Origin: Coriobacteriia bacterium
GTDB taxonomy: Bacteria; Actinomycetota; Coriobacteriia; WRKU01; WQUG01
Direction of reading: 5' to 3'
NCBI GenBank assembly: GCA_009785705.1
Contig: WQVS01000001.1
Location: 6,689 to 70,688 of the forward strand
Length of the DNA: 64,000 nt
This document shows, one piece after another, positions 12,019 to 49,171 of the stretch. The notes under the pieces were generated by a model. The model did not search any database and was not told the origin of the DNA. It saw only the letters and a program-made list of their open reading frames with translations. Each line of letters starts with the position of its first letter. Within the stretch, counting starts at the first letter, position 1. Both the position numbers and the translations under genes were made by a program.

Positions 12019-12039
12019 AGGTATGACGTACACACCACA

Positions 12040-16045: not shown

Positions 16046-16086
16046 GAGCTTAGTCAACAGCGACCAGTGGGTGAGGAGATTGGCCT

Positions 16087-16763: not shown

Positions 16764-16800
16764 TTTATCAAACTTCGCCCTGGCTCGAAGTTTGATAAAT
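16763..16800 (+). terminator. Perfect 15-bp hairpin after vapC. It is a terminator, or an operator-like palindrome.
   Basis: ATTTATCAAACTTCG with loop CCCTGGCT then CGAAGTTTGATAAAT. The downstream T-tract is weak. Confidence 0.4.
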
Positions 16801-16937
16801 CGTTGCTCTTATAACCCCCTTAGTGGGCTATACTAAAATACCGTATGAACAAATCACCGTTGTTGTGATGCGGGCTGCAGTTAGGCAGCCGCAGAGCAAC
16901 CATAAGCAAACCCTTAAACAGGAGAGGTTGATATCGT

Positions 16938-18608: not shown

Positions 18609-18712
18609 TGGACGCCCTCTCAGGCATCCTACAATACAAGACTTAACATTGACACTAGAAACATGAGCAAGTTACATATCACGCAGAACAAAAGAAAGCA
18701 TGAAGGTATATT

Positions 18713-20023
18713 TTGAGACTACTATGGGGAACAGCCGCAGAGCTGCTAGAACAACGCAAGGGTTATCAGGAATTGCTCGTAAGCGTAGATGGACGCAGCG
18801 ATAAGGCAAGGGCTATCTCGTATCCAGAAGTAAGCGGCTCTGTTGAAGCGGGCGACCGTATCTTGCTCAACACAACTGCTGTTGATTTGAATCTCGGTAC
18901 TGGGGGTAAACACTTTGTTGTCGCCCGTACCAATGGTGCTGATAAAGCTCCAGACAGTAATCCGCCTCAGCTTGACGAAGCTATGAATCCTGAAGCGGGT
19001 CACCTTATGAAATTGCGCTACACCCCTCATCAACACAACGTACTTAGTGTGGAGGCTCAAGAATCCCCTTATCACAAAGTAATGGAAAACCGTGACAGTC
19101 TAGAGGGAGTACCTGTCGTCTGCTGTGGCCTGCACAGTCAAGTACCCTTAGTTGCGGCAGCAGTGAAGAAAGCCATGCCCTCGCTAACAGTGGGCTATGT
19201 CATGGATGACAGCGCAGCCCTTTCCTTGAACCTCTCAAAAGTGCTGGCAGATTCAGTAGAGGCTGGCCTTATCGATGTGACAGTTTCTACAGGACAATCT
19301 TTCGGTGGAGAAATCGAGGCCATCAATCTGCATTCTGGCCTACTTGCAGCCGTTCATGTAGGGGGCTGTGACGTAGTCATTGCAGGCATAGGTCCTGGTC
19401 TTGCGGGAACGGGTACCCCTTTCGGGCACGGGGGAGTAGCCCAGGGCGAAGCCATTAACGCGACTGCATCCCTAGGTGGTGCACCCATTGTCTGCTTGCG
19501 CATGTCACAAGCTGATGCACGTGAAAGGCACCTAGGCATCAGCCACCATTCCTTAACAGCACTCTCACGAGTAGCCTTAGCTCCAGCAACCATCGCTATA
19601 CCACACATGGATGAGAGCTGCCCTGTGCACGAACGCGTCGATGCCGAATTGGACGAGCTCCCCAATGCGGTGGGTCATATGGCCTTCCAGTTGGAAGAAT
19701 CTTTCTACGACGAGGCTGCCTTGCGCGGAATAAGGGTTACTACCATGGGGCGAAACTACGCACAAGACCCTCTTTTCTATGAGGCAGCTAGTGCGGCAGG
19801 TGCTACTGCTGCTATGGTGGCAGTTATGACCATTGAAGAAGAGGCAGCTGCGGCAGTAAAAGAGGCAGAGGAAGCAGCAGAAACTGCCGTATTTGGTGGA
19901 TGTAGCGCAAAGGTAGAGGGGGGTACAGCACTGGCGTCTACAGCGACAGCAGGCTGTCCTTCAGCCAGTAGTTGTGCTTCTGCCAGCACTTGTACAAGTG
20001 ACCATGCAGGTTCATGTGGTTAG
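18713..20023 (+). CDS. Conserved hypothetical protein (possibly DUF3866-like) with an Ala-rich and Cys-rich C-terminal tail
   Basis: 436-aa ORF starting with TTG (start uncertain). The tail is ...GCPSASSCASASTCTSDHAGSCG. Confidence 0.4.
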   Translation: MRLLWGTAAELLEQRKGYQELLVSVDGRSDKARAISYPEVSGSVEAGDRILLNTTAVDLNLGTGGKHFVVARTNGADKAPDSNPPQLDEAMNPEAGHLMKLRYTPHQHNVLSVEAQESPYHKVMENRDSLEGVPVVCCGLHSQVPLVAAAVKKAMPSLTVGYVMDDSAALSLNLSKVLADSVEAGLIDVTVSTGQSFGGEIEAINLHSGLLAAVHVGGCDVVIAGIGPGLAGTGTPFGHGGVAQGEAINATASLGGAPIVCLRMSQADARERHLGISHHSLTALSRVALAPATIAIPHMDESCPVHERVDAELDELPNAVGHMAFQLEESFYDEAALRGIRVTTMGRNYAQDPLFYEAASAAGATAAMVAVMTIEEEAAAAVKEAEEAAETAVFGGCSAKVEGGTALASTATAGCPSASSCASASTCTSDHAGSCG

Positions 20024-21630: not shown

Positions 21631-22557
21631 ATGAATACCTATTTAGAAGATTTTTTAGCTTACTTGAATATCGAGCAGGGGGTTTCGCCTCATACGCTTG
21701 AGGCTTATCGTCGTGATATTGCTGACTTTATTCAGTGGGCTGACTCTCTGGGCAGGACAAGGCTTGAAGATGTGCAGCGCAGTGACATTGATTCTTACAT
21801 CGCTGCGCTTAAGACTGGTAAGCAGCCCTTATCAGCCAATTCAATCGAACGCAGATTATCTGCAATTAATAGTTTCTATAAATATCTTGCGCGGGAAGGT
21901 TTCTCAGTTAACTCTCCTGTATCGCAACTTGCGCGTAGAAAAAAGGATCAACGACTTCCTAATTATCTGAGTATTGCGCAGGTAGAAGCCCTGTTTGCTG
22001 CTCTGGATCCCGACCTTGCTACAAATCCTGCATTAGGATTGCGCAATAGGGCTATGGTAGAACTTCTCTATTCAAGTGGTCTGCGCGTAAGTGAATTATG
22101 TAACTTGCGCATCGACCAAGTAAATATTGATGAGCAGTTCTTGCGCACTATGGGCAAAGGCTCGAAAGAGCGCATTGTGCCTTTAGGTGCTGTTGCTCTG
22201 CAGTGGCTAGAGCGCTATCTGCTACAGGGAAGGTCTGCTCTAAAGCCCAAGCGAGGTCTGCCCGCAACGGCAGATGAAGTATTCTTAACCGTAAAAGGTA
22301 AGCCCATCTATCGCCAGGCAGTCTATGCCGTGGTGCGCACTGCAGGGGAACAGGCAGGCATCAAAGGATTACACCCTCACGTTCTGCGCCATACCTTTGC
22401 CACGCATCTGCTAAACGGAGGAGCAGACCTCCGTGCACTGCAAGAAATGTTGGGTCACAGCGACCTATCAACTACACAGGTATACACTCACCTAAGCAAG
22501 GAACATTTAAAAGAAGAATACATAGCAGCACATCCCCGCGCAAAAAGAGGTACCTGA
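21631..22557 (+). CDS. xerD: Tyrosine recombinase of the XerC/XerD family
   Basis: C-terminal catalytic box HPHVLRHTFATHLL...LGHSDLSTTQVYTHL and an N-terminal core-binding domain. Confidence 0.85.
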   Translation: MNTYLEDFLAYLNIEQGVSPHTLEAYRRDIADFIQWADSLGRTRLEDVQRSDIDSYIAALKTGKQPLSANSIERRLSAINSFYKYLAREGFSVNSPVSQLARRKKDQRLPNYLSIAQVEALFAALDPDLATNPALGLRNRAMVELLYSSGLRVSELCNLRIDQVNIDEQFLRTMGKGSKERIVPLGAVALQWLERYLLQGRSALKPKRGLPATADEVFLTVKGKPIYRQAVYAVVRTAGEQAGIKGLHPHVLRHTFATHLLNGGADLRALQEMLGHSDLSTTQVYTHLSKEHLKEEYIAAHPRAKRGT

Positions 22558-22560
22558 AGT

Positions 22561-22592
22561 TCTTATACCTATGTTGCAGCATAGGTTCTATG
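22561..22592. other. dif/att-like inverted repeat (7-bp arms, 6-bp spacer) directly after xerD. It could instead be the xerD terminator.
   Basis: ACCTATG ttgcag CATAGGT, with extended arms ttatACCTATG / CATAGGTtcta. Confidence 0.3.
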
Positions 22593-22733
22593 AAATTTGA
22601 ATCTATCAAAAGGTAGGCAACAGCAATCTGGTAATAACCCTCTCTGTTTGTAATAAAAAGAAGGCAAAATCTTGTGCTTCATAATAAAATATAGTGCAAT
22701 ACAGCTCCATCCGGCACTTTCGAGAGGACACAA

Positions 22734-25664
22734 ATGACCGCCACCATAACAAATAAAGCCACAGCAGACCGTATCCTAGCCGCCGAAACTTTCGTCACTG
22801 AATGGACAGACCGCGGACAGGAAAACGCAGACACACAAACTTTCTGGAACCAGTTCCTCGAAGAGGTCATGGGCATCTCGCGCGTACACCACCATATCGA
22901 CTATGAAAAGAAAGTCCGCATTGGCCGCTCCAGCAACAGAATCGATGCCTACATCCCAGAATCCCGTATCCTCATTGAACAAAAATCTTACCTTACCGAC
23001 CTTACTAAACCACAACACCAGTCAGACGACACCACTCTCACGCCCTACGAACAAGCATTACGCTACGCAGCAAATCTACCGCAATCAGAACAGCCTAAAT
23101 ACATCATTACCTGTAACTTCAGCGAATTCCACATCTACGACCGTAACCACGACCCAGCAGGAACTGACCCCACCATAATCACCCTGCAAGAACTTCCCCA
23201 GCAATTACAAGCCTTCACCTTCATAACGGAGCCCATTGACACTAGAATCACCCGCCAGCAACAACTAAACTTTGACGCAGCACGACTCATAGGTAATCTC
23301 TACGACGACATCAAGCACCAATACACTGGCAGCGAGCCTAGCAGCGACCCAACAGACACCCCCACCTGCACCCAGCGCGACCTAGCGACATTGATGGTCA
23401 GACTGCTATTCTGCCTCTATTCAGAAGACAGCGGTCTGTTCGAACAGGGTCTCTTCCGCAAATACTTACTGCACATCCCCGCAGGACAAGGGCACTTCCG
23501 CCGTGCGCTCATAGACCTCTTCCGCACCCTCAACACACCCTACGACCAGCGCGACACCCTGCCAACAGAAACCCTGGCCCAGTTTCCCTACATCAACGGC
23601 GGCCTTTTCGCAGACAGCATCGAAATCCCCATCTTTACCAATGACATCAAATTCAAGCTATTGCACGAGGCTGGCGAAAACTTCAACTGGTCAGAAATCT
23701 CACCGGTCATCTTTGGCTCGATATTTGAATCCATCCTCTCGGGCGATGAACGCCGCGCAGGAGGCATGCACTACACCAGCGTAGATAACATCCACAAAGT
23801 AATCGACCCGCTCTTTCTAAACGACCTAAGGCAGCGACTAAACAAAGCAGGTACTAACAAGACTGCACTCACCAAGCTGCAAACCGAGCTCGCCACCCTA
23901 AACTTCCTAGACCCCGCCTGTGGCAGCGGAAACTTCCTAACTCAAACCTATCTAGAGTTGCGGTCCATAGAGAACGAAATCCTAAAGCGTCTCATAGGCG
24001 ACCAAATGACCATGGACCTAGCCACTTTTACAGATGCGGAGGAGGAGGGCGGCCCATCATTGGTCAAAGTAAATGTCGGTCAGTTCTACGGTATAGAAAT
24101 AAACGACTTTGCTGTGTCGGTGGCTAACGCAGCCCTATGGATTGCAGACCACCAAGCCAACCAGCAAACTGCCAAGATTATTGGCCGCCCCGTAGTAAAT
24201 CTGCCACTGATTGACTATCACCACATAGTAGTAGGCAATGCCCTGCGCATGGACTGGAACGAAGTGCTGCCAGCCAGTGAGTGCAGCTACATCATGGGCA
24301 ACCCTCCGTTTTTGGGTTACTCGAACCAAAGTCCAGAACAAAAGGCTGACATGCTAGCAGTTTGCACAGATGAAAACGGTAAGCCACTGAGAGGTGCGGG
24401 CAAAATAGACTACGTGGCTGGCTGGTACTTCAAGACTGCCAGATTCGTGGGGGGGGGGGGCATCTCTGCCGCCCTTGTATCGACAAGCTCAATCACGCAA
24501 GGCGAGCAAGTTGTCTTGTTGTGGCAACCACTAATTGAGGAATTCGGCATGTCGATTGACTTTGCATATCGGACTTTTAACTGGACTGTTGACCACGCAA
24601 ACGCAGCTGCTGTCCACTGTGTAATTATCGGCTTTTCATGCGCTAATTCTTATCTTCGTTGTCCTAACGAATCTCACCTCCGTCATTGCGACCCCCGAGC
24701 CGCAATCTTGGACTCACAGTCAAGAGGCTCTCGCACAAAAATCATATACGACGGTTGTGAAGCTATAGTTGCCCAGAACATCAATCCGTACTTGCTTGAT
24801 GCACCAAATATATTTATCAAGATTCGAACGAAACCTCTTTCAGATGTTCCAAAAATGATAACTGGTAATCGTCCCGCAGATGGTGGTCATCTAATTATCG
24901 AAGACGTTGATTTGGCAGATTTTATCAAGAATGACCCATTGTCAGAAAAGTACATTCGCAAGTTTATGGGAGCAGCAGAATTTATCAACAACAGAAAGCG
25001 TTGGTGTTTGTGGCTTGTTGGTGTTCCGCCAAAAGAACTGCGCAGCATGCCAGAAGTCATGAAGCGAATTGCTGCATGTAGGGAAGACCGTCTGAGTGCA
25101 AAAGATATTGGTCGTCAAAGACTTGCTGAAACACCAACTTTATTTAGAGAAGTGAATAGTCCTCAATCTTTTATAATCATTCCTCGACACTCGTCTGAAG
25201 GCAGGAAATATATTCCTTTGGGGTTTGCTGGTTCTGATGTTATTGTTAATGATGCTGTAATGATTATTCCGGATGCAACACTTTATCACTTTGGAGTCCT
25301 AATTTCTCAATTTCACAATGTTTGGGTGCGGACTGTGGCTGGGCGACTAGAAAGTCGTTATCGCTATTCGAAAAATGTTGTCTACAACAATTTCATCTGG
25401 CCAGACCCAACTGACCTGACCCAAAAAGCAAAAATCGAACAACTCGCCCAATCAGTCTTAGATGCTCGAGCCACCTACTCAGACAGCTCACTAGCAGACC
25501 TCTACGATCCCCTAACTATGCCACCCGACCTACTAAAAACCCACAAAGCCCTCGACAAAGCCGTTGAACAAGCCTACGGAGTCAACTTCCGCGGCAACGA
25601 ACCCGCCATAGTCCAACACCTCTTCCAACTTTATTCTCGAAAGGTTCGGGAGGATTTAGAATGA
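22734..25664 (+). CDS. Type IIL (MmeI-family) single-polypeptide restriction-modification enzyme. It combines an N-terminal PD-ExK nuclease, a gamma-class N6-adenine methyltransferase and a C-terminal target-recognition domain (TRD).
   Basis: 976 aa. D-x9-E-x-K (DAYIPESRILIEQK) near the N-terminus. MTase motif I DPACGSGNFL and motif IV NPPF. The C-terminal domain has a distinct, AT-richer composition. Confidence 0.8.
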   Translation: MTATITNKATADRILAAETFVTEWTDRGQENADTQTFWNQFLEEVMGISRVHHHIDYEKKVRIGRSSNRIDAYIPESRILIEQKSYLTDLTKPQHQSDDTTLTPYEQALRYAANLPQSEQPKYIITCNFSEFHIYDRNHDPAGTDPTIITLQELPQQLQAFTFITEPIDTRITRQQQLNFDAARLIGNLYDDIKHQYTGSEPSSDPTDTPTCTQRDLATLMVRLLFCLYSEDSGLFEQGLFRKYLLHIPAGQGHFRRALIDLFRTLNTPYDQRDTLPTETLAQFPYINGGLFADSIEIPIFTNDIKFKLLHEAGENFNWSEISPVIFGSIFESILSGDERRAGGMHYTSVDNIHKVIDPLFLNDLRQRLNKAGTNKTALTKLQTELATLNFLDPACGSGNFLTQTYLELRSIENEILKRLIGDQMTMDLATFTDAEEEGGPSLVKVNVGQFYGIEINDFAVSVANAALWIADHQANQQTAKIIGRPVVNLPLIDYHHIVVGNALRMDWNEVLPASECSYIMGNPPFLGYSNQSPEQKADMLAVCTDENGKPLRGAGKIDYVAGWYFKTARFVGGGGISAALVSTSSITQGEQVVLLWQPLIEEFGMSIDFAYRTFNWTVDHANAAAVHCVIIGFSCANSYLRCPNESHLRHCDPRAAILDSQSRGSRTKIIYDGCEAIVAQNINPYLLDAPNIFIKIRTKPLSDVPKMITGNRPADGGHLIIEDVDLADFIKNDPLSEKYIRKFMGAAEFINNRKRWCLWLVGVPPKELRSMPEVMKRIAACREDRLSAKDIGRQRLAETPTLFREVNSPQSFIIIPRHSSEGRKYIPLGFAGSDVIVNDAVMIIPDATLYHFGVLISQFHNVWVRTVAGRLESRYRYSKNVVYNNFIWPDPTDLTQKAKIEQLAQSVLDARATYSDSSLADLYDPLTMPPDLLKTHKALDKAVEQAYGVNFRGNEPAIVQHLFQLYSRKVREDLE
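24449..24460 (+). repeat. G12 homopolymeric tract inside the RM gene coding sequence, encoding V-G-G-G-G
   Basis: Direct count from the sequence: agattcGTGGGGGGGGGGGGcatc. It is in frame as assembled. Confidence 0.9.
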
Positions 25665-26647
25665 ACGAGAGCGAGAGAGTAAGAATAGCAATTGAATGTG
25701 GGTGGCTAGTAGCTGGACTTCCAGCTGTCTCTTTTTCGCATTCATTATGCAATCTTTTGTCTGGATTCGGTAAGGCTGAAGAGGTATACCCTATGATATG
25801 TGGATGGACTGCATTTCACAGAAAAAATAATCCCATTGAACGAGCATATCACTATACAAGCATAGAAGGAATGGAAGGAATTTTACTTACACCTGTAAGC
25901 GTGAAAACATCATTAATCTCAAACCTTTGCGCGAATACTGATTTCTCAGATATGTTTGCAATGGGCGTTAAGCCAGTTGGTAGTAGCAACGACTCTTCGG
26001 AGGGCGGAGCATACTGTAAAGAGATTTTTGAGCTCATGCTGAGTGATATGCTAGAGGAAAAATTGATAACAGAATCATTTGTACAGCTTGTCAGTGATGT
26101 TATCTCTAGAGGAGATACATATAAAAAATGGCCAGAAATTCTTGAATATATGGCATGCTTTTCAGCAGCACGTGACAGCGAAACCATGTGGAAAGGCTAC
26201 AGTAATGGACAAGGAGTAGCTCTAGGGTTTGATTTTCAGAATTCCGAGCTACTTTTCCCACTGATGTACTTGCGGACAGAGCAAGAATTTTGTGTGCGCA
26301 AGGCGTGCGAGGCATTATGCAAAATATTCAATGAAGAATATATGCAGGGTAAGGATGAGGTTGAAAGGGCCATCAGCGCAGCATTTGAACTTTTTTCTGG
26401 GCGCTTCAAGAAGGAGGATTCTGTAGATGAGCAAGAGTGGCGGCTACGAATCATAGATGAAGATAATGAGTTTGGCGATAGAGTTAGCGATGAGCGCTTA
26501 TTGGTTGCCTTGCCAAAGTCCTATCTTAAAGAGATAATTTGTAGTCCAGGAACTTCTAACGAGCAGGTGGAAGAAATACGTCGAAGGCTCGAATCAGCAG
26601 GCTACAGCATAAATGTATCCACTTCGTTGCTGACAGTTGCGAATTGA
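25661..26647 (+). CDS. DUF2971-like hypothetical protein, translationally coupled to the RM gene
   Basis: Its start overlaps the RM stop (ATGA). It has a YHYTSIEGMEGIL-type motif typical of DUF2971. AT-rich composition. Confidence 0.4.
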   Translation: MNESERVRIAIECGWLVAGLPAVSFSHSLCNLLSGFGKAEEVYPMICGWTAFHRKNNPIERAYHYTSIEGMEGILLTPVSVKTSLISNLCANTDFSDMFAMGVKPVGSSNDSSEGGAYCKEIFELMLSDMLEEKLITESFVQLVSDVISRGDTYKKWPEILEYMACFSAARDSETMWKGYSNGQGVALGFDFQNSELLFPLMYLRTEQEFCVRKACEALCKIFNEEYMQGKDEVERAISAAFELFSGRFKKEDSVDEQEWRLRIIDEDNEFGDRVSDERLLVALPKSYLKEIICSPGTSNEQVEEIRRRLESAGYSINVSTSLLTVAN

Positions 26648-26792
26648 TGATTGTGGATATAGTTCTGGCAAGACCTATGAGTTCCAGTGCGAACACTGTG
26701 CGCGATGTTTCATGCAAAAATGCTCGTAAGATATTCCCTGCTTCATGCCACATAATACAGAAATTGACATTAGCCGATGTGGATCAGATGCT

Positions 26793-27281
26793 ATGCTAAT
26801 CAAGAAACTTATTTTCACTGCTTTGGGAGTTTTGCTACTAGCGGTCACTTTAGCAGGATGTATTTCTTTCGATGTTTCTCGTGAACCTGTGGTGGCTGAT
26901 GAATTTATTGCTGCTGCAGAAGTCCTCTCATTTGAGACTTACGAGATACCAAGGGACGAAATTGAACACTTGGTTGAAGCTGGAGCAGTCAGTTCTTTTT
27001 CTGCCAACCGCGGAACAGCATCGGTGGGCTTTGACATCTATAGCGATGAAGATAGTGCAGAAGATAATTTTGACTTTTATCGTACAGGGGTAGTGAGCTT
27101 ATTTCCATCGCCTTCGTTTGAGGAGCTTGATGGATGTTCTGCATGGGACTTTCATCAAAGACGGAGTTCTACTGCTTTGGTAGTGGCTATTCGTGTTGAC
27201 AATACGGTGTTCTTTGCTAGTGCAGAAACCATTGAAGACGTTGCGGCAGTAGATGCACTTATTGCTGCCATTGGATACTAA
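26793..27281 (+). CDS. Hypothetical lipoprotein
   Basis: Signal peptide with lipobox LAGC. The ORF is open from 26745. The start is uncertain. Confidence 0.4.
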   Translation: MLIKKLIFTALGVLLLAVTLAGCISFDVSREPVVADEFIAAAEVLSFETYEIPRDEIEHLVEAGAVSSFSANRGTASVGFDIYSDEDSAEDNFDFYRTGVVSLFPSPSFEELDGCSAWDFHQRRSSTALVVAIRVDNTVFFASAETIEDVAAVDALIAAIGY

Positions 27282-27616
27282 ATGGAAAATAGAGTGTCAT
27301 GGGGACGTATAACCTGACGCTTTTTGCTGGACTTGTAGCGAATAGCTTGAATCAGCATAAGCCGCAGGTGAGAGGAGTGGGCAGACTGCCCTATCCACTG
27401 TATCAGGCACTGTCCTAACCACTGACACTATCTTTGGTAGCACCGTCGACCACCGCATTGCAAAAGATTAGATGTATTGCGGGGTGTTAGTGCAGACACA
27501 TTTTGCTGGCTTGCGGGGATGGACAGTTCTTCCTCTGTCAGACCAGAGAACCCTTCTTCACTGAATGAACATGTGTTGCATATTGCGCTACTAAGAGAAG
27601 AGACCTATAATCGTTC

Positions 27617-27797
27617 CTAGTGTGTAGATGCCTGCAGAGTGGTGTAGGTTTTCTACTTTGAAATAGAAGAGTGCCAAAGAGAGATGCTTGACTACTATAC
27701 CGCGTCCCTTGGCCCTTACCTTAGTCCACTTACGTAGTTCGGATAACTGCGTTTGTATATAAAGTTTCTCGGTTACGATTTACGCGAAAGGAGAAGG
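27617..27797 (+). promoter_or_regulatory. Conserved non-coding element, copy 1, in the long leader of the tupABC-moco operon. It is a candidate Mo/W-cofactor-responsive riboswitch or regulator binding region.
   Basis: Shares the blocks CTAGTGTGTAGATGC, TTTTCTACTTT and GAAAGGA with the element at 37664-37817. It also shares a 49-nt core (27733-27781), identical except for one base. Confidence 0.4.
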
Positions 27798-28017
27798 CCC
27801 CTGCTTGCTGGGCTTCAATTGTCGAAAAGCAAGTAATTACCCGGAAAACTGAATACTGATTATGAATGGGCGTTATTGATTCCCATGACTGACCTGTGAT
27901 TATCGGCAGACTTTGTTATTCGCTGATTTTCTAGTCTTGAGTCGTGCCAGTCGTGCGTCTTTGTATCTCACTTTCATCATCGCATAATGAATTTTGATAC
28001 ATATTAAAGGAGTAGAT

Positions 28018-28902
28018 ATGTCTAGTTTTTCACGCACTAAAAAAGGAATTATAAGGCTCGTCACACTCAGTATTCTCGCAGGACTTTTGCTCATTTTTGC
28101 TGCCTGCACAAGTCCAGAAGAAAGCCCTGAGGTAGAAGAAGTTGCTACCGCCCCTGTTGAAGTAACTAACATGGTTTTAGCTTCAACTACTTCCACACAG
28201 GACTCGGGACTTTTCGAAGCTCTTATTCCCGCCTTTGAAGATGCTCATCCAGAAGTAAACGTTCAAGTTATTGCTGTTGGTAGCGGGGAAGCCATGGAAA
28301 TGGGTCGCAGAGGCGACGCTGACCTCCTTCTCGTTCACTCACCTGCAGCAGAAATCACCTTCATGGAAGAAGGCTATGGTTTAGAGCGCAGTCCTGTAAT
28401 GTATAACGATTTCATCATCATAGGGCCAGAAGATGACCCTGCCGATGTCGCAAGTAGTGCTGATGCAGCTGAAGCTTTTGCGCGCATTGCAGAATCAGAA
28501 TCCACCTTCGTTTCTCGTGGGGACGATTCAGGAACACATGCAAGAGAGATGTCCATTTGGGACTTGGCTGAGATAGAGCCAGAGGGCGATTGGTATCAGG
28601 AATCTGGACAAGGCATGGGCGCAACACTGCAAATAGCCGAAGAATTCCAAGCCTATACGCTTACTGATAGAGCAACTTATCTGAATCTCAATAATGAAGG
28701 CGTGCTAGAACTACCTATCTTAAGTGAGGGCTCAAATGAGCTTCTGAATTTCTATCATGTGATAACTCTCGTTGATGCAAGAGAACAAGCAGCAGCGCAA
28801 GCTTTTGCCGACTGGATTATCAGCCCTGCAGGTCAAGAAGTCATCGCTGGCTTTGGTGTAGAGGACTTTGGTGCTCCTCTCTTTACCCCGAACGCTGACT
28901 AG
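28018..28902 (+). CDS. tupA: Tungstate ABC transporter substrate-binding protein TupA
   Basis: TupA-specific TTSTQDSGL motif and a signal peptide. RBS AAAGGAG precedes ATG 28018. Confidence 0.85.
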   Translation: MSSFSRTKKGIIRLVTLSILAGLLLIFAACTSPEESPEVEEVATAPVEVTNMVLASTTSTQDSGLFEALIPAFEDAHPEVNVQVIAVGSGEAMEMGRRGDADLLLVHSPAAEITFMEEGYGLERSPVMYNDFIIIGPEDDPADVASSADAAEAFARIAESESTFVSRGDDSGTHAREMSIWDLAEIEPEGDWYQESGQGMGATLQIAEEFQAYTLTDRATYLNLNNEGVLELPILSEGSNELLNFYHVITLVDAREQAAAQAFADWIISPAGQEVIAGFGVEDFGAPLFTPNAD

Positions 28903-28952
28903 CAATTAAGGAATTGACCTTATATGACTAATCAGCAGAAAAGACAAGGCAC

Positions 28953-29681
28953 ATGAATCTTTCAGGACTACGCCTTTTTAGCGATGCCTTCGCGGATGGA
29001 TTTTCTTTGCTCGCGCAGGGTACCGTTGACTTGTGGAACATCATCCTTACTTCTCTGCAGGTCTCAGGTTTCGCAACAGGCATTGCTGTTGTTATCGGTA
29101 TTCCTGCTGGTTACTGGTTAGGGTCACGCAGAAATGTCCGCAGATTCACAGCTCTTGTCATAGCGAATGCTGGAATGGGCCTGCCACCTATCGTGGCAGG
29201 CCTTTTTGTATCGATGCTGCTTTCAAGAAGTGGTGTTTTTGGTGAACTGGGCTTGCTCTACACCAGACCAGCAATAGTTATTGTTCAAGTCGTTATCGCA
29301 ACTCCTGTCGTAGTGGCACTTACAGCGTCAGGTATATCTGCAGTTCCTGCACAACTTCGTCTGCAGGCGCGCTCACTGGGGGCAGGTCGCTTCCAAGAAA
29401 TTGCTCTTGCAGTGCGCGAGGCACGTCTCTCTATCCTGGGTGCTATTGCAGGTGGTTTTGGTGCAGTCATTAGTGAGGTAGGTGCTGTGCAAATGGTGGG
29501 GGGTAATCTGGCTGGACAGACTCAGGTTATGACAACAGCAATCATGCAGTATACGCGCATGGGCAGATTTGGCGTTGCTATGGCACTTTCAGTGATACTA
29601 CTCTCCATCATCATAGTAGTCAATGTCATCATAACTCGTGAACAGCTTCGTGATGAACGCTATACGAAGGCGCTCTCATGA
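28953..29681 (+). CDS. tupB: Tungstate ABC transporter permease TupB
   Basis: Type-I ABC permease fold with an EAA-like loop. Confidence 0.8.
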   Translation: MNLSGLRLFSDAFADGFSLLAQGTVDLWNIILTSLQVSGFATGIAVVIGIPAGYWLGSRRNVRRFTALVIANAGMGLPPIVAGLFVSMLLSRSGVFGELGLLYTRPAIVIVQVVIATPVVVALTASGISAVPAQLRLQARSLGAGRFQEIALAVREARLSILGAIAGGFGAVISEVGAVQMVGGNLAGQTQVMTTAIMQYTRMGRFGVAMALSVILLSIIIVVNVIITREQLRDERYTKALS

Positions 29682-30571
29682 TGGTAGATATGGCAAAGAC
29701 AGTAGCAATAGCAACAACAGCGGCGACTACTGCAAGGGCAACATCAGTGAAAACTGCAACAAAAGATATGAGAGTAATCAGTTCGCAAGAAGCTGACTAC
29801 AAGCTAGTGGCAGAAGGTCTTGCACTCCACTATCCTGATTTCTCTCTACAGATTGAGCGCTTCGGTCTCAAATCGGGTGAGATTGTAGCCCTTCTCGGGC
29901 CATCAGGTAGCGGCAAATCAACTTTGCTCATGTGTATGGCAGGACTCGAAAGCCCCAAAGAGGGCACAGTCTTTTTGGACGGGATCCAGCTTAGTCGCAG
30001 TCTTGCACAAAAGAGCATAGCAACCGTATTTCAGACGCCCTATCTCTTCAAGGGAAACGTTGGTTATAACGTGGCCTATGGTCTACGCATGCGCAAATTG
30101 CCAAAACAAGAGATTAAAGCGCGGGTAGCAGAGGTACTTGACCTAGTGGGACTCAAGGGCTGGGAACGCAGGTCAATCCTTGGACTTTCAGGGGGAGAAG
30201 CTCAGCGTGTTGCTCTTGCAAGGGGGTTGGTGCTTAGTCCCCAAGTCATGATGCTGGACGAACCCCTCTCATCTCTTGATGAGGCCTTGCGCAAAACGCT
30301 GTCAGTAGAATTCTCAGAAATCCTACGCAGCCAAAAGATTACGGTGCTCTACGTGACCCATTCAAAACAGGAAGCTTTCACTGTTTCAGATAGTGTGGCC
30401 ATTATGAAGTCAGGCCGCATTTTGGTGCATGACAGGCTGAAAAATCTGTTTAATGACCTGCAAGACGAATGGGTACAGGATTTCTTAGCTCCCGATGATT
30501 GGTGGCTAAAATTCAAAGAATCGGGGAACCAAGCAAGCAGTCAGGCTAAACAAACAAAGGAGTCACAATGA
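29678..30571 (+). CDS. tupC: Tungstate ABC transporter ATP-binding protein TupC
   Basis: Walker A GPSGSGKST, signature LSGGEAQRV and Walker B MLDEP. Confidence 0.8.
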   Translation: MMVDMAKTVAIATTAATTARATSVKTATKDMRVISSQEADYKLVAEGLALHYPDFSLQIERFGLKSGEIVALLGPSGSGKSTLLMCMAGLESPKEGTVFLDGIQLSRSLAQKSIATVFQTPYLFKGNVGYNVAYGLRMRKLPKQEIKARVAEVLDLVGLKGWERRSILGLSGGEAQRVALARGLVLSPQVMMLDEPLSSLDEALRKTLSVEFSEILRSQKITVLYVTHSKQEAFTVSDSVAIMKSGRILVHDRLKNLFNDLQDEWVQDFLAPDDWWLKFKESGNQASSQAKQTKESQ

Positions 30572-31863
30572 CACATACCAGCCTTAGTTTTGACAGAGCA
30601 CTTAAGCGTTGGCTTTCAACGATAGAGAGACTAGACCCAGAGACGGTACTCTTGGATGAATCTTTGGGACGTATTCTTGCCGCCGACCTCTCCAGTGATA
30701 TTGATGTGTCACCCTTCGACAATTCGGCGATGGATGGATTTGCTCTGCGCGCAAGAGACATTGCAAAGGCGAGTCCTGCCACACCTATCGATTTAGAGGT
30801 AGTTACCTGTATCGCTGCGGGCGACTATTGGGAGGGAACTCTTCAAGCAAGACAGGCCGCACGCATCATGACGGGTGCCCCGCTACCAGCAGGTGCCGAC
30901 ATCGTTGTTAAAGTTGAAGATACGACGAAGGCTGATAGTGACCAGCATGTTCGTTTTAGCTCGGCTGCATCCAGAGGCCTCAACATTCGCCTTAGGGGCG
31001 AAGAGATTAAAGCGGGGGAGCGCGTACTTGCTTCTGGCGAATATCTTGGCCCTGCAGCGGTCGGACTTTTAGCAGCAACGGGATATGTACAGGTGCCCGT
31101 GTTCAGGCAACCCACTGTAGCCATTATCTCAACAGGGGAAGAACTCATCCCTGTGGGTGACACACCAACACGCGGCAAGATTCGTAACAGCAATTCACAT
31201 TCACTAGCGGCTCAGGCTCAGGCCGCAGGTGCAAGGGTGCGCCAGTATGCAAGCATTCCCGACACACTTGAGGACACCGTTGCAACGTTTAGGCAGGCAA
31301 GCACAGAATGCGACATCATCATATCAAGCGGTGGCGTATCAGTAGGAGACTTCGACTTTGTGGAAGAGGCTGTCCAATCACTGGGTGATTTGCACTTCTC
31401 CACCGTCAAAATGCGGCCAGGCAAACCTCAGGTAACAGGCATGATTAACAAACTCCCTTTCTTTGGATTGCCTGGAAATCCCACTTCTGCCTATTTGGGC
31501 TTTGAGCTCTTTGTTCGTCCAGCGATTCTCAAAATGGCAGGACATACTCGCTTGCAAAGACCTGTCCAAACAGCAGTACTAAGTCACGACATTAAAAAAC
31601 GTCAGGGCTTGCGCTATTTCATGCGCGGCAGAGTACGTCTAGCAGATATTCAGGAACCAGCAGAACCTTCTTCTTCTGCGAACGCACAGGACAGGGCGCA
31701 CAGTCATCTTGTGCAGGTCACGGGAAATCAGTCAAGCGCACTGCTAGGTTCACTCCATGAAGCTAATTGTCTTCTTGTTCTGCCTGAAGAAGAGACAGAG
31801 CTAAAAGCAGGAACAGTTGTTAAATGTATTCGTCTTGATATGGAAGAAAGGGTGGAACTGTAA
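30568..31863 (+). CDS. moeA: Molybdopterin molybdenum/tungsten transferase MoeA
   Basis: MoeA motifs (SPFDNSAMDGFA; GGVSVGD). Confidence 0.9.
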   Translation: MTHTSLSFDRALKRWLSTIERLDPETVLLDESLGRILAADLSSDIDVSPFDNSAMDGFALRARDIAKASPATPIDLEVVTCIAAGDYWEGTLQARQAARIMTGAPLPAGADIVVKVEDTTKADSDQHVRFSSAASRGLNIRLRGEEIKAGERVLASGEYLGPAAVGLLAATGYVQVPVFRQPTVAIISTGEELIPVGDTPTRGKIRNSNSHSLAAQAQAAGARVRQYASIPDTLEDTVATFRQASTECDIIISSGGVSVGDFDFVEEAVQSLGDLHFSTVKMRPGKPQVTGMINKLPFFGLPGNPTSAYLGFELFVRPAILKMAGHTRLQRPVQTAVLSHDIKKRQGLRYFMRGRVRLADIQEPAEPSSSANAQDRAHSHLVQVTGNQSSALLGSLHEANCLLVLPEEETELKAGTVVKCIRLDMEERVEL

Positions 31864-32966
31864 TGACACCTTTGGTGAGCAAGGGACGCACTATAGACTA
31901 TTTGCGCATCTCACTAACGGACCGCTGTGATTTGCGCTGTGTATATTGCATGGGTGCTGATGGAATAGAGGACAAGCTAGACAGAGAATTGATAATGTCT
32001 CTAGAGGACGTGGCGCAATTTGCCCGTATCGCCTGTGCAGAAGGCATTAAATATATTCGTTTGACAGGCGGTGAACCCTTAGTGCGACTAGGCATCGTTG
32101 ACCTAGTAAGGGAACTATCACAGATTCCTCAACTTGAAGACTTGTCGATGACCAGTAATGGACAGCTTTTTGGTAAATATGCTGAAGACCTGAAGAATGC
32201 TGGTTTATCTCGCATTACTTTTTCTCTAGATTCTACTGATGCGACTACCTATGAAAAGCTTACACGTGGGGGAGACCTAGTAAAGGTCTATTCAGCTATC
32301 GATGAGGCATTAAGATTGGGGTATAGCCCCGTCAAAATTAATGCGCTTGCTTACCAGCTGACAGAAGACGATTTGCTCAATTTTATACGTATGACAGAGG
32401 AGAAGCCCATACATGTCCGCTTCATCGAGTACATGCCCATAGGCTTTGTGGGCAGGGAGGCGCGCAAGTGTCCAACCCCACCCCCTTGCTTAGCCCTTTC
32501 AGCTCAGTCTACTGCAGCTGCAGACTGCTCAAATAATGCGACAGAAAGCAGGCCAGAAGCACATCAAAGCAAGCCTTTGCTGACTATGGGCCAAATTCGA
32601 GATGCAATCAATGAGCTTGCTTCTACAAGGGGCTTAAGTGAACTGAAGCCTTTAAAGAGAGAAAAGGCCCCCTTAGGGCATGGGCCAGCTAGCTCCTATG
32701 CTTTTGATGAGGCACAAGGCAGCTTTGGTTTTATCGCTGTGCATTCGCAAAATTTCTGTGCAGACTGTAACAGGCTGCGCCTTACTGCTGATGGAAAAAT
32801 TCGCTCCTGTCTCTTTTCAGATCTAGAGATTCCTATAGGGGCAGCACTGCAAACGAAAAACAGGGACAGTCTGCGAGCAAGCTTATTGCAGGCTGTAGCT
32901 AGCAAGCCATTATCATATGCACAACAGCAGGGTACAAAGCGCACTATGTCAGCCATCGGTGGCTGA
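31863..32966 (+). CDS. moaA: GTP 3',8-cyclase MoaA (radical SAM)
   Basis: CDLRCVYC radical SAM cluster motif and a C-terminal second-cluster region. It also has an insertion of about 40 aa. Confidence 0.9.
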   Translation: MTPLVSKGRTIDYLRISLTDRCDLRCVYCMGADGIEDKLDRELIMSLEDVAQFARIACAEGIKYIRLTGGEPLVRLGIVDLVRELSQIPQLEDLSMTSNGQLFGKYAEDLKNAGLSRITFSLDSTDATTYEKLTRGGDLVKVYSAIDEALRLGYSPVKINALAYQLTEDDLLNFIRMTEEKPIHVRFIEYMPIGFVGREARKCPTPPPCLALSAQSTAAADCSNNATESRPEAHQSKPLLTMGQIRDAINELASTRGLSELKPLKREKAPLGHGPASSYAFDEAQGSFGFIAVHSQNFCADCNRLRLTADGKIRSCLFSDLEIPIGAALQTKNRDSLRASLLQAVASKPLSYAQQQGTKRTMSAIGG

Positions 32967-33096
32967 GCTGTTTTGGTGGCACCTAGGTGATGTATCGTAA
33001 GGCTCACGTAGATTTTGCTTCACCTTTCGATGCATCACCTATGCACTCGCCAAAACAGCTCATATTACCTATAGATTTTATTAGGGAAGGATTATT

Positions 33097-34074
33097 ATGT
33101 TTACTCATCTTGACTCTAAGGGACAAGCTTCCATGGTTGATGTGGGGGATAAGCTCACTACTCACCGGGTGGCAATCGCTTCCTCCTTTATCCAGATGAA
33201 CAGTGCTACTCTGAATGCCATCAAGGGTGACGCTCTGAAAAAGGGCGATGTGTTAGCAACTGCACGTATCGCAGGGATTCAGGCAGCAAAGCGCTGTTCA
33301 GAACTTATCCCTCTCTGTCATCCTCTGCTCATAAGTAGGGTGGCAATAGACTTTGAATTTGTCGAAAGGGTACAGAGGGATACCAAAGCTGTTCAAGAAG
33401 GCGCTAAACCCGAACAAGACAACAAGCCCTGCGGAATACGCTGCTTTGCGACAGTCACACTGACAGGTCAAACGGGCGTAGAGATGGAGGCTCTAACAGC
33501 AGCCTCTGTGACAGTACTTACCATCTTTGACATGGCGAAAGCAGTCGATAAAAACATGAGTATCGACGCTATACGCCTTGAATACAAATCGGGGGGTAAA
33601 AGCGGTATCTTTGCAACAGGTCAGGCAGGAATGGTATTAGCCATCAACCTCTCAAAAGAAACTGGGGAGCAAAAGGTCAGTACCACAGAAGCGGTAGATT
33701 TCATTGAAGGGCATGGAATAGAGAGCGATGCCCATGCAGGGGATTGGCACAGACAGATTTCGCTTCTTGACCAATCATCAGTAGACCAGCTTATTGCAAA
33801 GGGCCTAACACTTAAGCCGGGCGACTTTGCTGAAAACATCACAACATCAGGATTTTCACTTCAGACCTTGCCTGTCGGCAGCAGACTGCGCCTAGGTCAA
33901 GCTCTGCTCGAAATCACCCAAATTGGAAAAGAATGTCATACTCGCTGCGCCATCTATCAGCAGGCAGGTGACTGCGTCATGCCACGTGACGGAGTATTTG
34001 CAGCAGTTATTGAGGGCGGCAAGGTAAGAGCTGGTGACACCATGTATCTGCTACAACAACAAAAGGAAATCTAA
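33097..34074 (+). CDS. moaC: Fusion: cyclic pyranopterin monophosphate synthase MoaC plus a MOSC domain
   Basis: The N-terminal ~160 aa are MoaC (SHLD...MVDV; CHPL). The C-terminal ~150 aa form a MOSC beta-barrel ([10 protein letters not shown]...GDFAENITT). Confidence 0.8.
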
Positions 34075-34541
34075 TGAGGTTAGCAATAATAACTTGCTCT
34101 GACACACGTAGCCTTGCTGAAGATGAAGCAGGCCACGCCCTGGCAAAGCGCATCACAGCTCGCAAGTGGGAGCTGTGCCAGCACATGGTAGTGAAAGATG
34201 ACATGCAGACAATTGAAGCTCGCTTAAAGCACTGCTCCGACGCACTAAAGGCTGATGTGATTCTGACCTGTGGCGGAACAGGTCTTAGCTCTCGTGATGT
34301 TACTCCAGAGGCTACCTTGGCTGTTGCAGATAGAGTAGTACCTGGTATAAGCGAAGCAATACGCCAGGCATCTCTTGATATCACAAAGTGCGCAATGCTT
34401 TCACGCGCAGTGAGCGTGCAACGTGGCACAACTCTTATAATAAACTTACCTGGTTCTAAGAACGCGGCGCTTGAATGCCTTTACGTGTGTATTGACCAAC
34501 TAGAGCACGCAGCAGATATGATGGCAGGGAAAGGACACTAG
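34074..34541 (+). CDS. mog: Molybdopterin adenylyltransferase MogA/MoaB
   Basis: MogA fold with the GGTG motif (LTCGGTGLSSRDVTPEA). Confidence 0.8.
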   Translation: MRLAIITCSDTRSLAEDEAGHALAKRITARKWELCQHMVVKDDMQTIEARLKHCSDALKADVILTCGGTGLSSRDVTPEATLAVADRVVPGISEAIRQASLDITKCAMLSRAVSVQRGTTLIINLPGSKNAALECLYVCIDQLEHAADMMAGKGH

Positions 34542-34550
34542 GCAGCTAGT

Positions 34551-36143
34551 ATGAGCAATATTGAAAATTTAAGTAAGCATTCGCTTCCTCTTACGGCAGT
34601 AATACTTGCAGGTGGACGTTCGCTGCGTATGGGTGTTGATAAAACACAGGTTGACCTTAGCGGAATACCCTTGCTTGCGCATGCAGTAAACAATGCTTCA
34701 GATTTTGCTAGTCAGATTATTATTGTGACAAATCGTCCCGATTCGATTGTCATAGACGACTTTCAAATAGAGGTCGAAATTGTCACCGATGAAATTGCTT
34801 ACCAGGGGCCCTTAGGTGGTCTGTCCACTGCTCTTAAGGTTGCACAAAATGAATGGGTTGTTGCTCTGGCAGCTGACATGCCTTGGGTGTCGAAGGAGGT
34901 CATTTCTGCTCTCTGGGACGCACGCGGTGATGGTAGTGCTGGGAACAACTCCAGTGGTCTCTCAGGCAATTCTGCCGATAGCCCTGTTGATAATGTCGCC
35001 ACCAACAACTTCGATGTAGTGGTTCCCGTTTCAGACAATGGTCCAGAACCTCTTCTTGCTCTCTACAGGCGGGACAGCATGCTTCAGGCTGCACAAGAGG
35101 TCTTAGACTCAGGTAAACGCCGCATCATCGCAGCCTACCCCGCCTTGCATGTACATGAGATAAACCTTGAATCCCTGCAACAAGTTGACCCCCATCTCAT
35201 ATCTTTCTACAACGTTAATACGCAGACTGACCTTATGGCAGCGCGCAAGTATGAGCAGGCGCGAAAAGCAGCAGATGAAAGAAGTCGTTCCTCAGATACA
35301 AAGGATACAGATACTGACAACAGTGCAGATGAGCTATTGGCTGCTCAAGAAATTATCCCTCACGATTTCAAGCGAGGAGACATACGAGTACTATCCCTAG
35401 AGGAAACAGGTCGCAGCATCCCTACAGAATCTCCCTTTACCATCTATCTCAATGACGTCGAGATTGCCACTGTACAGGCAAGCGATGATGACCTTGAAGA
35501 CATGGCAGTTGGATTCTTGCTTGCAGAGGGTCTATTGCACGACAGGTCTGCGTTCAAGTCAGTTGACCTCGATGCAAAGAGGGGTCTTATCTATGTAGGC
35601 TCAGATGAACTTGTCCCCGAAGATTTGGTATACCGTACACGCTACATTACCTCTGGTTGTGGCAAAGGAATAACTTTCTCAAGTCTTGGTCATGCCCGTG
35701 GCCTGGAAAAGATTACCCAGGAGCTGAAAGTTTCACCGCATGACCTCTACTACTGGATGAGTGAGCTGTCCAAACGCAGTGCAGAACATAGGGAACGGGG
35801 AGGCTACCACTCCTGCGGACTTGTTCTTTCGGGGGAGCTGCAGCTAGTTCGTGAAGATATAGGACGCCATAATGCTGTTGATAAATTGCTTGGTCAGGCC
35901 TGGCTAGAAGGCATGCCCATTGGGCAGGGGATAGTGCTGGTGAGCGGACGCATCTCCTATGAAATGATTGTTAAGGCGGCAAAAAGTAAGATTCCCTTTA
36001 TTGCGTCAAGGTCAGCTGCAACAGATTTGGCAGCAGAGATTGCCCAGGACTTAGGTATTACTTTAGTGGGTTATGTGCGCGGAGGGAAGATGGTTGCCTA
36101 CACTCATCCAGAGCGCATAGCAAATGAGGGATCAGATGCCTGA
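34551..36143 (+). CDS. Fusion: MobA (Mo-cofactor guanylyltransferase) plus FdhD (sulfurtransferase for formate dehydrogenase)
   Basis: The N-terminus has the MobA motif LAGGRSLRMGVDK. After a low-complexity linker comes an FdhD domain (GRHNAVDKLLGQAWLEG with a Cys-bearing loop). Confidence 0.8.
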   Translation: MSNIENLSKHSLPLTAVILAGGRSLRMGVDKTQVDLSGIPLLAHAVNNASDFASQIIIVTNRPDSIVIDDFQIEVEIVTDEIAYQGPLGGLSTALKVAQNEWVVALAADMPWVSKEVISALWDARGDGSAGNNSSGLSGNSADSPVDNVATNNFDVVVPVSDNGPEPLLALYRRDSMLQAAQEVLDSGKRRIIAAYPALHVHEINLESLQQVDPHLISFYNVNTQTDLMAARKYEQARKAADERSRSSDTKDTDTDNSADELLAAQEIIPHDFKRGDIRVLSLEETGRSIPTESPFTIYLNDVEIATVQASDDDLEDMAVGFLLAEGLLHDRSAFKSVDLDAKRGLIYVGSDELVPEDLVYRTRYITSGCGKGITFSSLGHARGLEKITQELKVSPHDLYYWMSELSKRSAEHRERGGYHSCGLVLSGELQLVREDIGRHNAVDKLLGQAWLEGMPIGQGIVLVSGRISYEMIVKAAKSKIPFIASRSAATDLAAEIAQDLGITLVGYVRGGKMVAYTHPERIANEGSDA

Positions 36144-37548: not shown

Positions 37549-37663
37549 CCTTTGCTTGCAAATAGGACTTCAGCAGCAAGGAAATAGCTTTGCTATTGCT
37601 TAAAAATATTTTAGAGAGTATATGAACTATTGTGTCAATTGAGTAAAAGGCTTAGAATGGTTA

Positions 37664-37817
37664 CTAGTGTGTAGATGCTTGCTTTTTCAGAAGTTTTCTA
37701 CTTTTAATGTGCCGCCCTTCAAATGCTAAAGGCACCCTACATAGGTAACATGCGTAGTTCGGATAACTGCGTTTGTATATAAAGTTTCTAGGTTACGATT
37801 TTTGTGAGAAGAAAGGA
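37664..37817 (+). promoter_or_regulatory. Conserved non-coding element, copy 2, in the leader of the fdh operon
   Basis: Same conserved blocks as copy 1. The 49-nt core at 37753-37801 differs from copy 1 only at 37790 (A versus C). Confidence 0.4.
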
Positions 37818-37947
37818 CTCACTACCTGCAAAAATTATGCCAGTGCGAAGCTGGATGATTTCTGTCAAATTTCATTTTGCGGGTAAACCATGAAACAACT
37901 GAATATTTGGTTCTTAAATGAACTGCATCTTCTTGGAAGGAGAATGT

Positions 37948-49165: not shown

Positions 49166-49171
49166 GCAGAT

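Follow-up and report, generated by a model that had tools for sequence, protein, structure and literature searches.

A probable new structured leader RNA shared by tungstate/molybdenum cofactor and formate dehydrogenase operons in uncultured Coriobacteriia

Main

The Moco motif, an RNA tied to the molybdenum cofactor (Moco), comprises up to five helices (P1–P5) around a central multistem junction that bears most of the conserved nucleotides, and it precedes genes for transporters, for Moco biosynthesis and for Moco-using enzymes (PMC2408646). A genome may hold several copies with differing expression platforms, which vary in kind; in many members the platform occludes the ribosome-binding site (PMC2408646). 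Here we analyse a stretch of 64,000 nucleotides (nt) from a Coriobacteriia bacterium (assembly GCA_009785705.1, contig WQVS01000001.1), hereafter the window, in which two intergenic regions, 27282–28017 and 37549–37947, share one element. The first copy precedes an operon for tungstate uptake (tup) and Moco synthesis, the second an operon for a formate dehydrogenase (fdh). The element is a conserved, folded leader RNA of ~240 nt, and each copy is probably the messenger RNA 5′ leader, on the sense strand, of a previously undescribed family of structured cis-regulatory RNAs.

An element repeated before two operons

The 37-nt sequence CGTAGTTCGGATAACTGCGTTTGTATATAAAGTTTCT occurs at two exact sites in the window (27733–27769 and 37753–37789), both on the + strand; no third site was found in the window at up to three mismatches, and 100 shuffles gave no match. 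The surrounding 49-nt core (27733–27781 and 37753–37801) is identical at 48 of 49 positions, the sole difference being C versus A. Searched with a covariance model built from ten homologous leaders, the 64 kb returned 27617–27797 and 37664–37817 and no other site. These results bear out the sequence-only reading, which had described a modular element in the two regions with the shared blocks CTAGTGTGTAGATGC and TTTTCTACTTT, a purine block of the GAAAGGA type, a GTGCC...GGCAC hairpin in copy 2 and a 49-nt core with a single differing base. Two of its details need correction: the element extends beyond 27797, a long-range helix (P6), a tail and a block opposing the Shine–Dalgarno (SD) sequence also being shared further 3′, and TCGGATAAC/TCGGTTAC, noted as a direct repeat, do not constitute a unit of repetition, the first copy being the loop and 3′ arm of helix P3.

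Copy 1 is followed (28018–37548) by tupA-tupB-tupC-moeA-moaA-moaC/MOSC-moaB-mobA/fdhD-cysteine desulfurase, and copy 2 by a selenocysteine-containing fdhA (in-frame TGA at 38551–38553, inside QARL-U-HSSTVAGLG), fdhB, fdhC (cytochrome b subunit), an FdhE-like gene and mobB. Together the two operons build a tungsten/molybdenum, selenocysteine-containing formate dehydrogenase (FDH); their assignment to tungsten/molybdenum cofactor and FDH functions, and that of the flanking genes, had been made correctly from the sequence.

TupA of the window is 100% identical to a protein of a Coriobacteriia bacterium metagenome-assembled genome, and an ENA metagenome contig matches the window. Contigs of relatives, fetched via TupA (73–84% identity to the window) and FdhA-N (67–89%), brought the collection to 13 distinct leaders from about eight or nine related uncultured Coriobacteriia, whose origin, where evident, is termite-gut samples of the Joint Genome Institute (JGI). 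Five are tup leaders (the window and contigs L003, L008, L014 and L013) and eight are fdh leaders (the window, L003, L008, L020, L022, L025, L027 and L031), and all 13 sit upstream of tupA or fdhA. Further copies and covariation in related genomes, proposed as a check from the sequence, were thus both found, and the element is always linked to tupA or fdhA instead of being dispersed before unrelated genes or in mobile DNA. Nor does its copy number, two per genome or locus, resemble that of a dispersed repeat or mobile element (REP- or MITE-like). Wherever the sequence of a relative suffices, both copies are found at these two positions. What lies upstream of the tup leader varies among species (an island with an integrase and an MmeI-type restriction–modification system in the window, recO in L003, an aldo-keto reductase gene in L008), and so the element goes with the operons downstream of it.

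The distribution was mapped with a degenerate pattern drawn from the two blocks that are conserved best. Among 185,579 GTDB species genomes it found one carrier, a termite-gut Coriobacteriia metagenome-assembled genome (MAG; WRBC01000004.1), in which the element stands exactly twice, once before tupA and once before fdhA. Eight stretches matched in JGI metagenomes, seven of them tup or fdh leaders; L024 proved to be a chance match within an open reading frame (ORF), with 13 bits by the covariance model. The pattern was absent from viral contigs and from plasmid and phage collections. As far as sampled, the family stays within a single clade of uncultured Coriobacteriia, most of which come from termite-gut samples.

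Over P3 and the core, copies within a genome share 0.80–0.94 identity (window 0.94, L003 0.84, L008 0.80) and orthologues 0.84–0.90. Since paralogues have diverged as far as orthologues, the duplication is older than the species split, and each copy is an old one under selection. Recent duplication and concerted evolution were rejected on the same figures, and the near-identity of the window copies mostly reflects constraint, most positions being invariant everywhere, and not recent copying.

Covarying helices and near-invariant strands

From 5′ to 3′ the leader consists of helices P1, P2 and P3, the last with a CGGAU loop, a ~30-nt strand, an SD-like purine block, P6, the tail AACUGAAUA and a predicted SD-sequestering hairpin (Table 1). 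The arms of P1 are the first shared blocks and covary as GUAGA:UCUAC, GCAGA:UCUGC, GUGGA:UCCAC and AUGGA:UCCAU; in ten leaders the outer stem is 100% paired, with double changes in three of its five pairs. P2 is kept as a hairpin though not in sequence, and eight of nine representatives fold better than their own shuffles (z from −4.6 to +0.2).

P3 forms the left part of the 49-nt core, ACGYAGUU(CGGAU)AACUGYGU, with two further pairs beyond an internal loop. In the 13 leaders it is 94.4% paired and 7 of its 11 pairs are double-changed, as from A-U to C-G in L027 or from U-A to C-G and A-U to G-C in L031; slid registers pair at 32–52%. Its near-invariant apical loop reads CGGAU in 10 of 13 leaders, UGGAU in two and CAGAU in one, the fdh leader of L003. 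In the ten-sequence alignment P1 and P3 together are 97.2% paired with 8 of 18 pairs double-changed, values that 0 of 500 shuffles reach, and registers slid by 1–3 columns are 27–56% paired. A reading of the loop as a CsrA-type GGA site was rejected, given the CAGAU of L003, and one would not expect to find CsrA in Actinomycetota.

P6 is 96.7% paired, with four of seven pairs double-changed, in the 13 leaders of both classes. Its arms read UACUUGC:GCAAGUA in tup leaders and UACCUGCA:UGCAGGUA in fdh leaders, with the variants UGUUUGC:GCAAACA in L008, UGCCUGC:GCAGGCA in L022 and GCUCGC:GCGAGC in L031. The class-specific part of P6 is its apex only, ~20 nt in tup leaders and ~40 nt (window) in fdh leaders, where it carries a hairpin with a GCGAA loop. 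A tup stem, GGCCC:GGGYU, was considered as a covarying competitor of P6 and set aside because it shows wobble changes only. Directly 3′ of P6, the tail AAYC...A(A/C)AAYYGAAWA is present in 13 of 13 leaders; pairing of its AACUG with the 5′ arm of P3 or with CGAUU, inspected by eye, is broken in several sequences.

Between P3 and P6 lies a near-invariant strand of ~30 nt, written UUGUAUAUAAAGUUUCUNGGUUACGAUUU. The sequence GUUUCUNGGUUACGAUU is near-invariant in the 13 leaders; the exceptions are the tup leaders of L008 and L014, which start AUUUC, one U-to-C change in the tup leader of L003, and GGUAACG in L027. The length of the AUAUA(A)AG linker varies by 0–2 nt. As a helix for this strand, P4 (UUUCUC:GAGAAG, local, with the purine block) was rejected at 69% paired. 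P5 (GUUUC..GGUU : AAYC..GAAAC), proposed by alifold for the fdh leaders, is 81% paired over both classes with zero double changes, and the tup leaders share no common register for it.

The purine block GAAAGGRG, an SD look-alike (GAAAGGAG), is kept in 11 of 13 leaders and takes a shifted form in the fdh leaders of the window and L003. At the copy 2 block a small hairpin covaries, with G-C in three sequences and A-U in two. An upstream ORF after the block was rejected, its candidate start reading CUG, UUA, GUG or GUA and its stops being unconserved; a 34-amino-acid ORF called in L003 has no counterpart in the window.

In the divergent leaders L025, L027 and L031, other, unrelated hairpins replace P1 and P2, whereas P3 with its CGGAU loop, GUUUCUNGGUUACGAUUY, GAAAGGAG, P6 and the tail are kept; these parts form the deeply conserved sensor. 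Of 180 cells tested for strand, 175 pair on the + strand and 157 on the − strand, where the 18 G·U pairs turn into A·C; this favours a + strand RNA and disfavours a DNA palindrome. A structured RNA, one of the two possibilities raised by the sequence-only reading, thus agrees with the covarying helices, with G·U pairs that are valid on the sense strand only and with a promoter just upstream. Covarying helices (here P1, P3 and P6) around conserved unpaired nucleotides are the architecture typical of riboswitches (PMC2408646).

Comparison with described RNA families

No family of Rfam 15 (4227 families) reached its gathering threshold anywhere in the window, and with permissive filters none, including RF01055 (the Moco/Tuco riboswitch; Tuco, tungsten cofactor), matched 27282–28017 or 37549–37947 at E ≤ 10. 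As a positive control, the same search found RF01055, whose gathering score is 36 bits, with 56.9 bits at 9883–10012 of L015, immediately before or overlapping the tupA start. L015 comes from a more distant Coriobacteriia MAG (GCA_016938135.1) with a 59% identical TupA and a similarly organised tup–Moco operon. The operon is therefore under riboswitch control in that relative, and an unrelated RNA holds the place in the present clade. Of the two options put forward from the sequence, a member of the Moco-riboswitch class is contradicted by the negative search with its positive control, and a new element agrees with the lack of any match to a described family.

The same RF01055 sequence lies upstream of tupA in L016, at 6279. 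Other products of the tup–Moco operon of L015 include a TupC with a TOBE domain and a Se_S_carrier protein, and a gene for a LysR/PBP_like regulator lies ~3.7 kb upstream of its tupA.

The new leader resembles RF01055 in standing, in all 13 cases, 5′ of genes for molybdenum/tungsten transport, Moco synthesis or a Moco enzyme, and in occupying the position before tupA that RF01055 has in L015. It differs in having no detectable similarity in sequence or structure, and RF01055 occurs in many phyla whereas the new leader is found in one narrow clade. In place of ~135 nt around a central junction, it spans ~240 nt with serial P1, P2 and P3, a long near-invariant strand and the long-range P6; its conserved nucleotides lie in the ~30-nt strand between P3 and P6 and not in a multistem junction.

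A candidate second Moco-associated RNA, the Moco-II motif, reportedly described by Weinberg and colleagues in 2017, is likewise a rare, narrowly distributed candidate leader tied to Moco-related genes. Provided that the 4227 families searched include it, it gave no match; this comparison is a lead only. Leaders of the PyrR, TRAP and LicT/RAT type share with the new element a single RNA site placed before the operons of one pathway, the loop and strand being a possible protein site, but here there is no Rfam match, no linked regulator gene and no conserved overlapping terminator and antiterminator.

Promoter and putative expression platform

A promoter pattern, TTGYGY-N17-TAnAAT, ends ~7 nt 5′ of the first shared block. 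In 10 of 10 close leaders a −10 of TATAAT, TAGAAT or TAAAAT follows a TTG-type −35 at 17–18 nt, at a constant distance from P1. A simple promoter-consensus scan made no call at either leader promoter, because the −35 is weak. Transcription would start at ~27618 and ~37665, ~7 nt after the sigma-70-type −10. The conserved promoter lies ~115 nt upstream of the core, so that the core would be transcribed. The element thus has the placement expected of a riboswitch, a sense-strand 5′ leader downstream of a promoter, with the start sites read from the promoter motif.

Next to the start codon stands a pyrimidine strand, UGCAUCUCUU in fdh leaders and GCGUCUUUG in tup leaders (kept in four). Pairing of such a strand with the SD sequence is predicted for fdh leaders by alifold (ten invariant pairs) and by single-sequence folds in eight of eight. 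In 12 of 13 leaders the SD is buried in the local minimum-free-energy fold, in L031 and L008 by means of other sequences (UUCCU:AGGAG in L031). These predictions suggest SD sequestration as the output of the leader. A conserved upstream sensor followed by a pyrimidine strand:SD hairpin, predicted in those 12 leaders, is also the layout of translational riboswitches and leaders. The gap between sensor and platform is 60–170 nt, long for a simple switch, and no conserved alternative pairing that excludes the SD hairpin was found.

The anti-SD strands of the two copies are alike (GCGUCUUUGU at 27955–27964, UGCAUCUUCU at 37924–37933), and both are complementary to the 5′ strand of P1, AGAUGC (27626–27631 and 37673–37678). 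Complementarity of AGAUGC with the anti-SD GCRUCU is present in 8 of 10 close leaders, with one A·C mismatch each in the tup leader of L014 and the fdh leader of L020. One may speculate that the P1 5′ strand engages the anti-SD strand in a long-range anti-anti-SD pairing.

Function and effector

We propose that, after a common sensor running from P1 to the tail, the strand UGCRUCUYUU would mask the real ribosome-binding site within a hairpin, and that an effector bound to the conserved domain would determine whether this site is exposed. The leader would thereby co-regulate, after transcription initiation, both halves of a single regulon, of which one serves to take up tungstate, make Moco and mature FDH and the other consists of the structural genes of FDH. 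The likeliest type of effector is a small molecule (the RNA would then be a riboswitch): the tungsten/molybdenum cofactor or a precursor, tungstate, or formate. A small molecule is favoured because the Moco/Tuco riboswitch stands at the same position in L015 and because no regulator gene travels with the element; a molybdenum/tungsten regulator gene (ModE, TOBE or TunR-like) is absent from the annotated ORFs of the window and of the relatives' flanks. Gene context and positional equivalence would fit responsiveness to tungstate or Moco. Since the two platforms are alike, control in the same direction is likelier than control in opposite directions, which leaves tungstate or formate open beside the cofactor.

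In its most specific form, the proposal is a new riboswitch class whose aptamer, made of P3, the strand, P6 and the tail, directly senses the tungsten/molybdenum cofactor, a pterin precursor, tungstate or formate; which displaced the Moco/Tuco riboswitch in one clade; and which governs both the supply of the cofactor and the selenocysteine enzyme that consumes it. We regard this form as possible, and put it forward tentatively. Probability not assigned to it or to the alternatives below belongs to variants of the leader reading among which we make no choice.

Several observations weigh against these proposals. The ~30-nt strand has no established pairing partner, P4 and P5 having been tried on the 13 leaders. 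Whole-element fold energies are no better than those of shuffles (z = +0.16 and +0.72), so the case for structure is made by covariation, and the 13 sequences belong to one narrow clade, their relatedness inflating the shuffle statistics. Constrained partition functions, with P6 forced or blocked, give no consistent change in SD accessibility. Promoter conservation is what places the putative start sites. Control of both operons in the same direction, which the likeness of the platforms suggests, departs from what simple cofactor feedback on an enzyme gene and a biosynthesis operon would lead one to expect, and a narrow range combined with a long invariant single strand is typical of protein-bound leaders too.

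A second, unrelated RNA acting on the same regulon would offer an independent route to the question of how RNA senses the molybdenum/tungsten cofactor pathway. The cofactor being unstable, no direct demonstration of ligand binding is known for the Moco riboswitch. Tungstate or formate, if either proved to be the effector, would be a riboswitch ligand of a new kind. That one cis-regulatory RNA occupies the genomic position held by another in a relative also bears on the turnover of riboswitch classes. Formate and CO2 turnover is central to termite-gut metabolism, and the element would mark a co-regulated module for an active tungsten-dependent FDH in uncultured termite-gut Coriobacteriia; the covariance model can be used to find further members in metagenomes.

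Alternative explanations

The alternative that survives best, although we consider it unlikely, keeps the leader and changes its reader: a trans-acting RNA-binding protein or small RNA would recognise the CGGAU loop of P3 and the ~30-nt strand, altering SD exposure, termination or transcript stability. A near-invariant loop beside a near-invariant strand that lacks a detectable intramolecular partner is what such a reader would require, and the very narrow phylogenetic range and the presence of the same site in exactly two messenger RNAs of one regulon point the same way. Against it, in none of the species does a candidate regulator gene accompany the element, the upstream neighbours differ everywhere, the equivalent operon of a relative is under a metabolite-binding RNA, and covarying helices around conserved unpaired nucleotides are the riboswitch-typical arrangement noted above (PMC2408646).

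Control at the level of DNA, by a second promoter in the core (with TATATAAAG as −10), by an operator of the ModE/TunR or response-regulator type, or by both, had been the other possibility raised from the sequence, and is improbable. The core is AT-rich and contains TATATA, hexamers of the TAnnnT type (TAAAGT, TAGATT and TAAGTT) can be read in it, and an invariant block of 30 nt could likewise be a site for a DNA-binding protein. Sites for ModE and TunR are dyad-symmetric or made of repeated half-sites, have constant spacing and overlap the promoter. In the leaders, by contrast, the distance between GTTTGTATATA and GGTTACGATT ranges from 8 to 10 nt among species, and the only dyad, P3, evolves through G·U pairs and double changes that keep RNA pairing and break DNA symmetry. 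The consensus scan calls no promoter in the core and no −10 with the usual A2 and T6 is conserved there, the core itself would be transcribed from the promoter upstream, and no ModE, TOBE or TunR-like gene lies nearby, in the window or in the relatives' flanks. A ModE-like half-site (TATATA beside CGAT) was also considered and rejected, the spacing being wrong.

Still less probable is that P3 and its U-rich tail act as an intrinsic terminator, giving an attenuated P1–P2–P3 transcript of ~140 nt or a stand-alone small RNA encoded in two copies. A terminator scan does flag P3 with UUGUAUAUAA in both copies (three and two sites, versus 0.4 and 0.3 expected), and the tail in L031, UCUUUUUUAUAAG, is a good U-tract; that in L025, UGGUAUAUAAG, is U-poor, however, and two more pairs (AC:GU) extend P3 into the supposed tract. 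Strong conservation goes on for more than 100 nt, over the strand, P6 and the tail, and would serve no purpose if P3 terminated efficiently; no conserved antiterminator was found.

A functionless by-product of recent segmental duplication, gene conversion or a mobile repeat flanking the tup–Moco operon is effectively refuted: the copies are direct repeats that bracket this 10-kb operon, the cores of the window are more alike than those of L003 or L008, and a defence/integrase island abuts copy 1, but the copies keep their two positions in relatives and have diverged as orthologues have, conserved blocks with compensatory changes stand amid unalignable spacers, viral, plasmid and phage collections hold no match, and the island is missing in relatives that retain the leader.

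Feature coordinates and neighbouring genes

The features of the two leaders are collected in Table 1.

Table 1. Positions in the window of the features of the two leaders (RNA letters for transcribed elements).
Feature	Copy	Position	Strand	Sequence or remark
Promoter	1	27583–27611	+	−35 TTGCGC 27583–27588; 17-nt spacer; −10 TATAAT 27606–27611
P1	1	27624–27656	+	GUAGA 27624–27628 : UCUAC 27652–27656
P1 inner stem	1	27631–27648	+	CCUGCA 27631–27636 : UGUAGG 27643–27648
P2	1	27660–27727	+	hairpin domain of variable sequence and length, then conserved UWGKU block
P3	1	27728–27756	+	AC-UU-ACGUAGUU (CGGAU) AACUGCGU-UU-GU; loop 27740–27744
Near-invariant strand	1	27753–27781	+	UUGUAUAUAAAGUUUCUCGGUUACGAUUU; 3′ part of 49-nt core
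Purine block	1	27786–27797	+	GAAAGGAGAAGG; SD look-alike, no conserved start codon after it
GC-rich stem overlapping P6	1	27795–27815	+	AGGCCC 27795–27800 : GGGCUU 27810–27815
P6	1	27802–27835	+	UGCUUGC 27802–27808 : GCAAGUA 27829–27835
Tail	1	27836–27855	+	AUUACCCGGAAAACUGAAUA; A(A/C)AACUGAAUA at 27845–27855
Putative platform	1	27955–28020	+	GCGUCUUUGUAUC 27955–27967 : SD region AAAGGAG 28006–28012; tupA ATG 28018
Promoter	2	37630–37658	+	−35 TTGTGT 37630–37635; 17-nt spacer; −10 TAGAAT 37653–37658
P1	2	37671–37701	+	GUAGA 37671–37675 : UCUAC 37697–37701
P2	2	37709–37735	+	GUGCC:GGCAC hairpin; fold z = −1.8
P3	2	37748–37776	+	loop CGGAU 37760–37764
Core and purine block	2	37753–37817	+	core 37753–37801; purine block GAGAAGAAAGGA 37806–37817, within the small hairpin
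Small hairpin	2	37804–37822	+	GUGAG 37804–37808 : CUCAC 37818–37822; 5′ arm overlaps purine block by 3 nt
P6	2	37823–37885	+	UACCUGCAAAA 37823–37833 : UUUUGCGGGUA 37875–37885
P6 fdh-specific apical domain	2	37840–37854	+	hairpin CCAGU(GCGAA)GCUGG
Tail	2	37886–37905	+	AACCAUGAAACAACUGAAUA; A(A/C)AACUGAAUA at 37895–37905
Predicted SD-sequestering hairpin	2	37924–37950	+	UGCAUCUUCUU : AGGAGAAUGU; fdhA ATG 37948

Upstream of copy 1, the stretch 21631–27582 encodes a XerC/D-type integrase, a 976-amino-acid MmeI-type restriction-methylase, a DUF2971 protein and a 178-amino-acid ORF and looks like an inserted defence island; its last 300 nt (27282–27582) are non-coding. In this genome only does the stretch lie directly upstream of the tup promoter. 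TupC (29678–30571, 297 amino acids) is without the C-terminal TOBE domain of its L015 homologue and has an N-terminal extension of ~45–60 amino acids ahead of the ABC domain. The fdhA gene (37948–41136), which ORF lists break into two, encodes a twin-arginine signal (MTRRNFLK), and genes for TatA and TatC lie at 48614–50164. A gene for the thiamine transporter Thia_YuaJ occupies 61385–62005. Genes of this type frequently have a thiamine pyrophosphate riboswitch upstream, and the Rfam gathering-threshold scan of the window found none.

Among the relatives, L027 carries two tandem fdhABC operons (10001–19912) with a leader on the first only (upstream regions 9646–10000 and 14795–15109); they might be a tungsten/molybdenum isoenzyme pair under different control. 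In the same contig the desulfurase gene and the fdh leader are set apart by an inserted HTH_31–HipA toxin–antitoxin pair. In L008 (7189–7650) and L014 (1894–2342), RNase P RNA (RF00010, ~295 bits) lies ~2.4 kb upstream of tupA.

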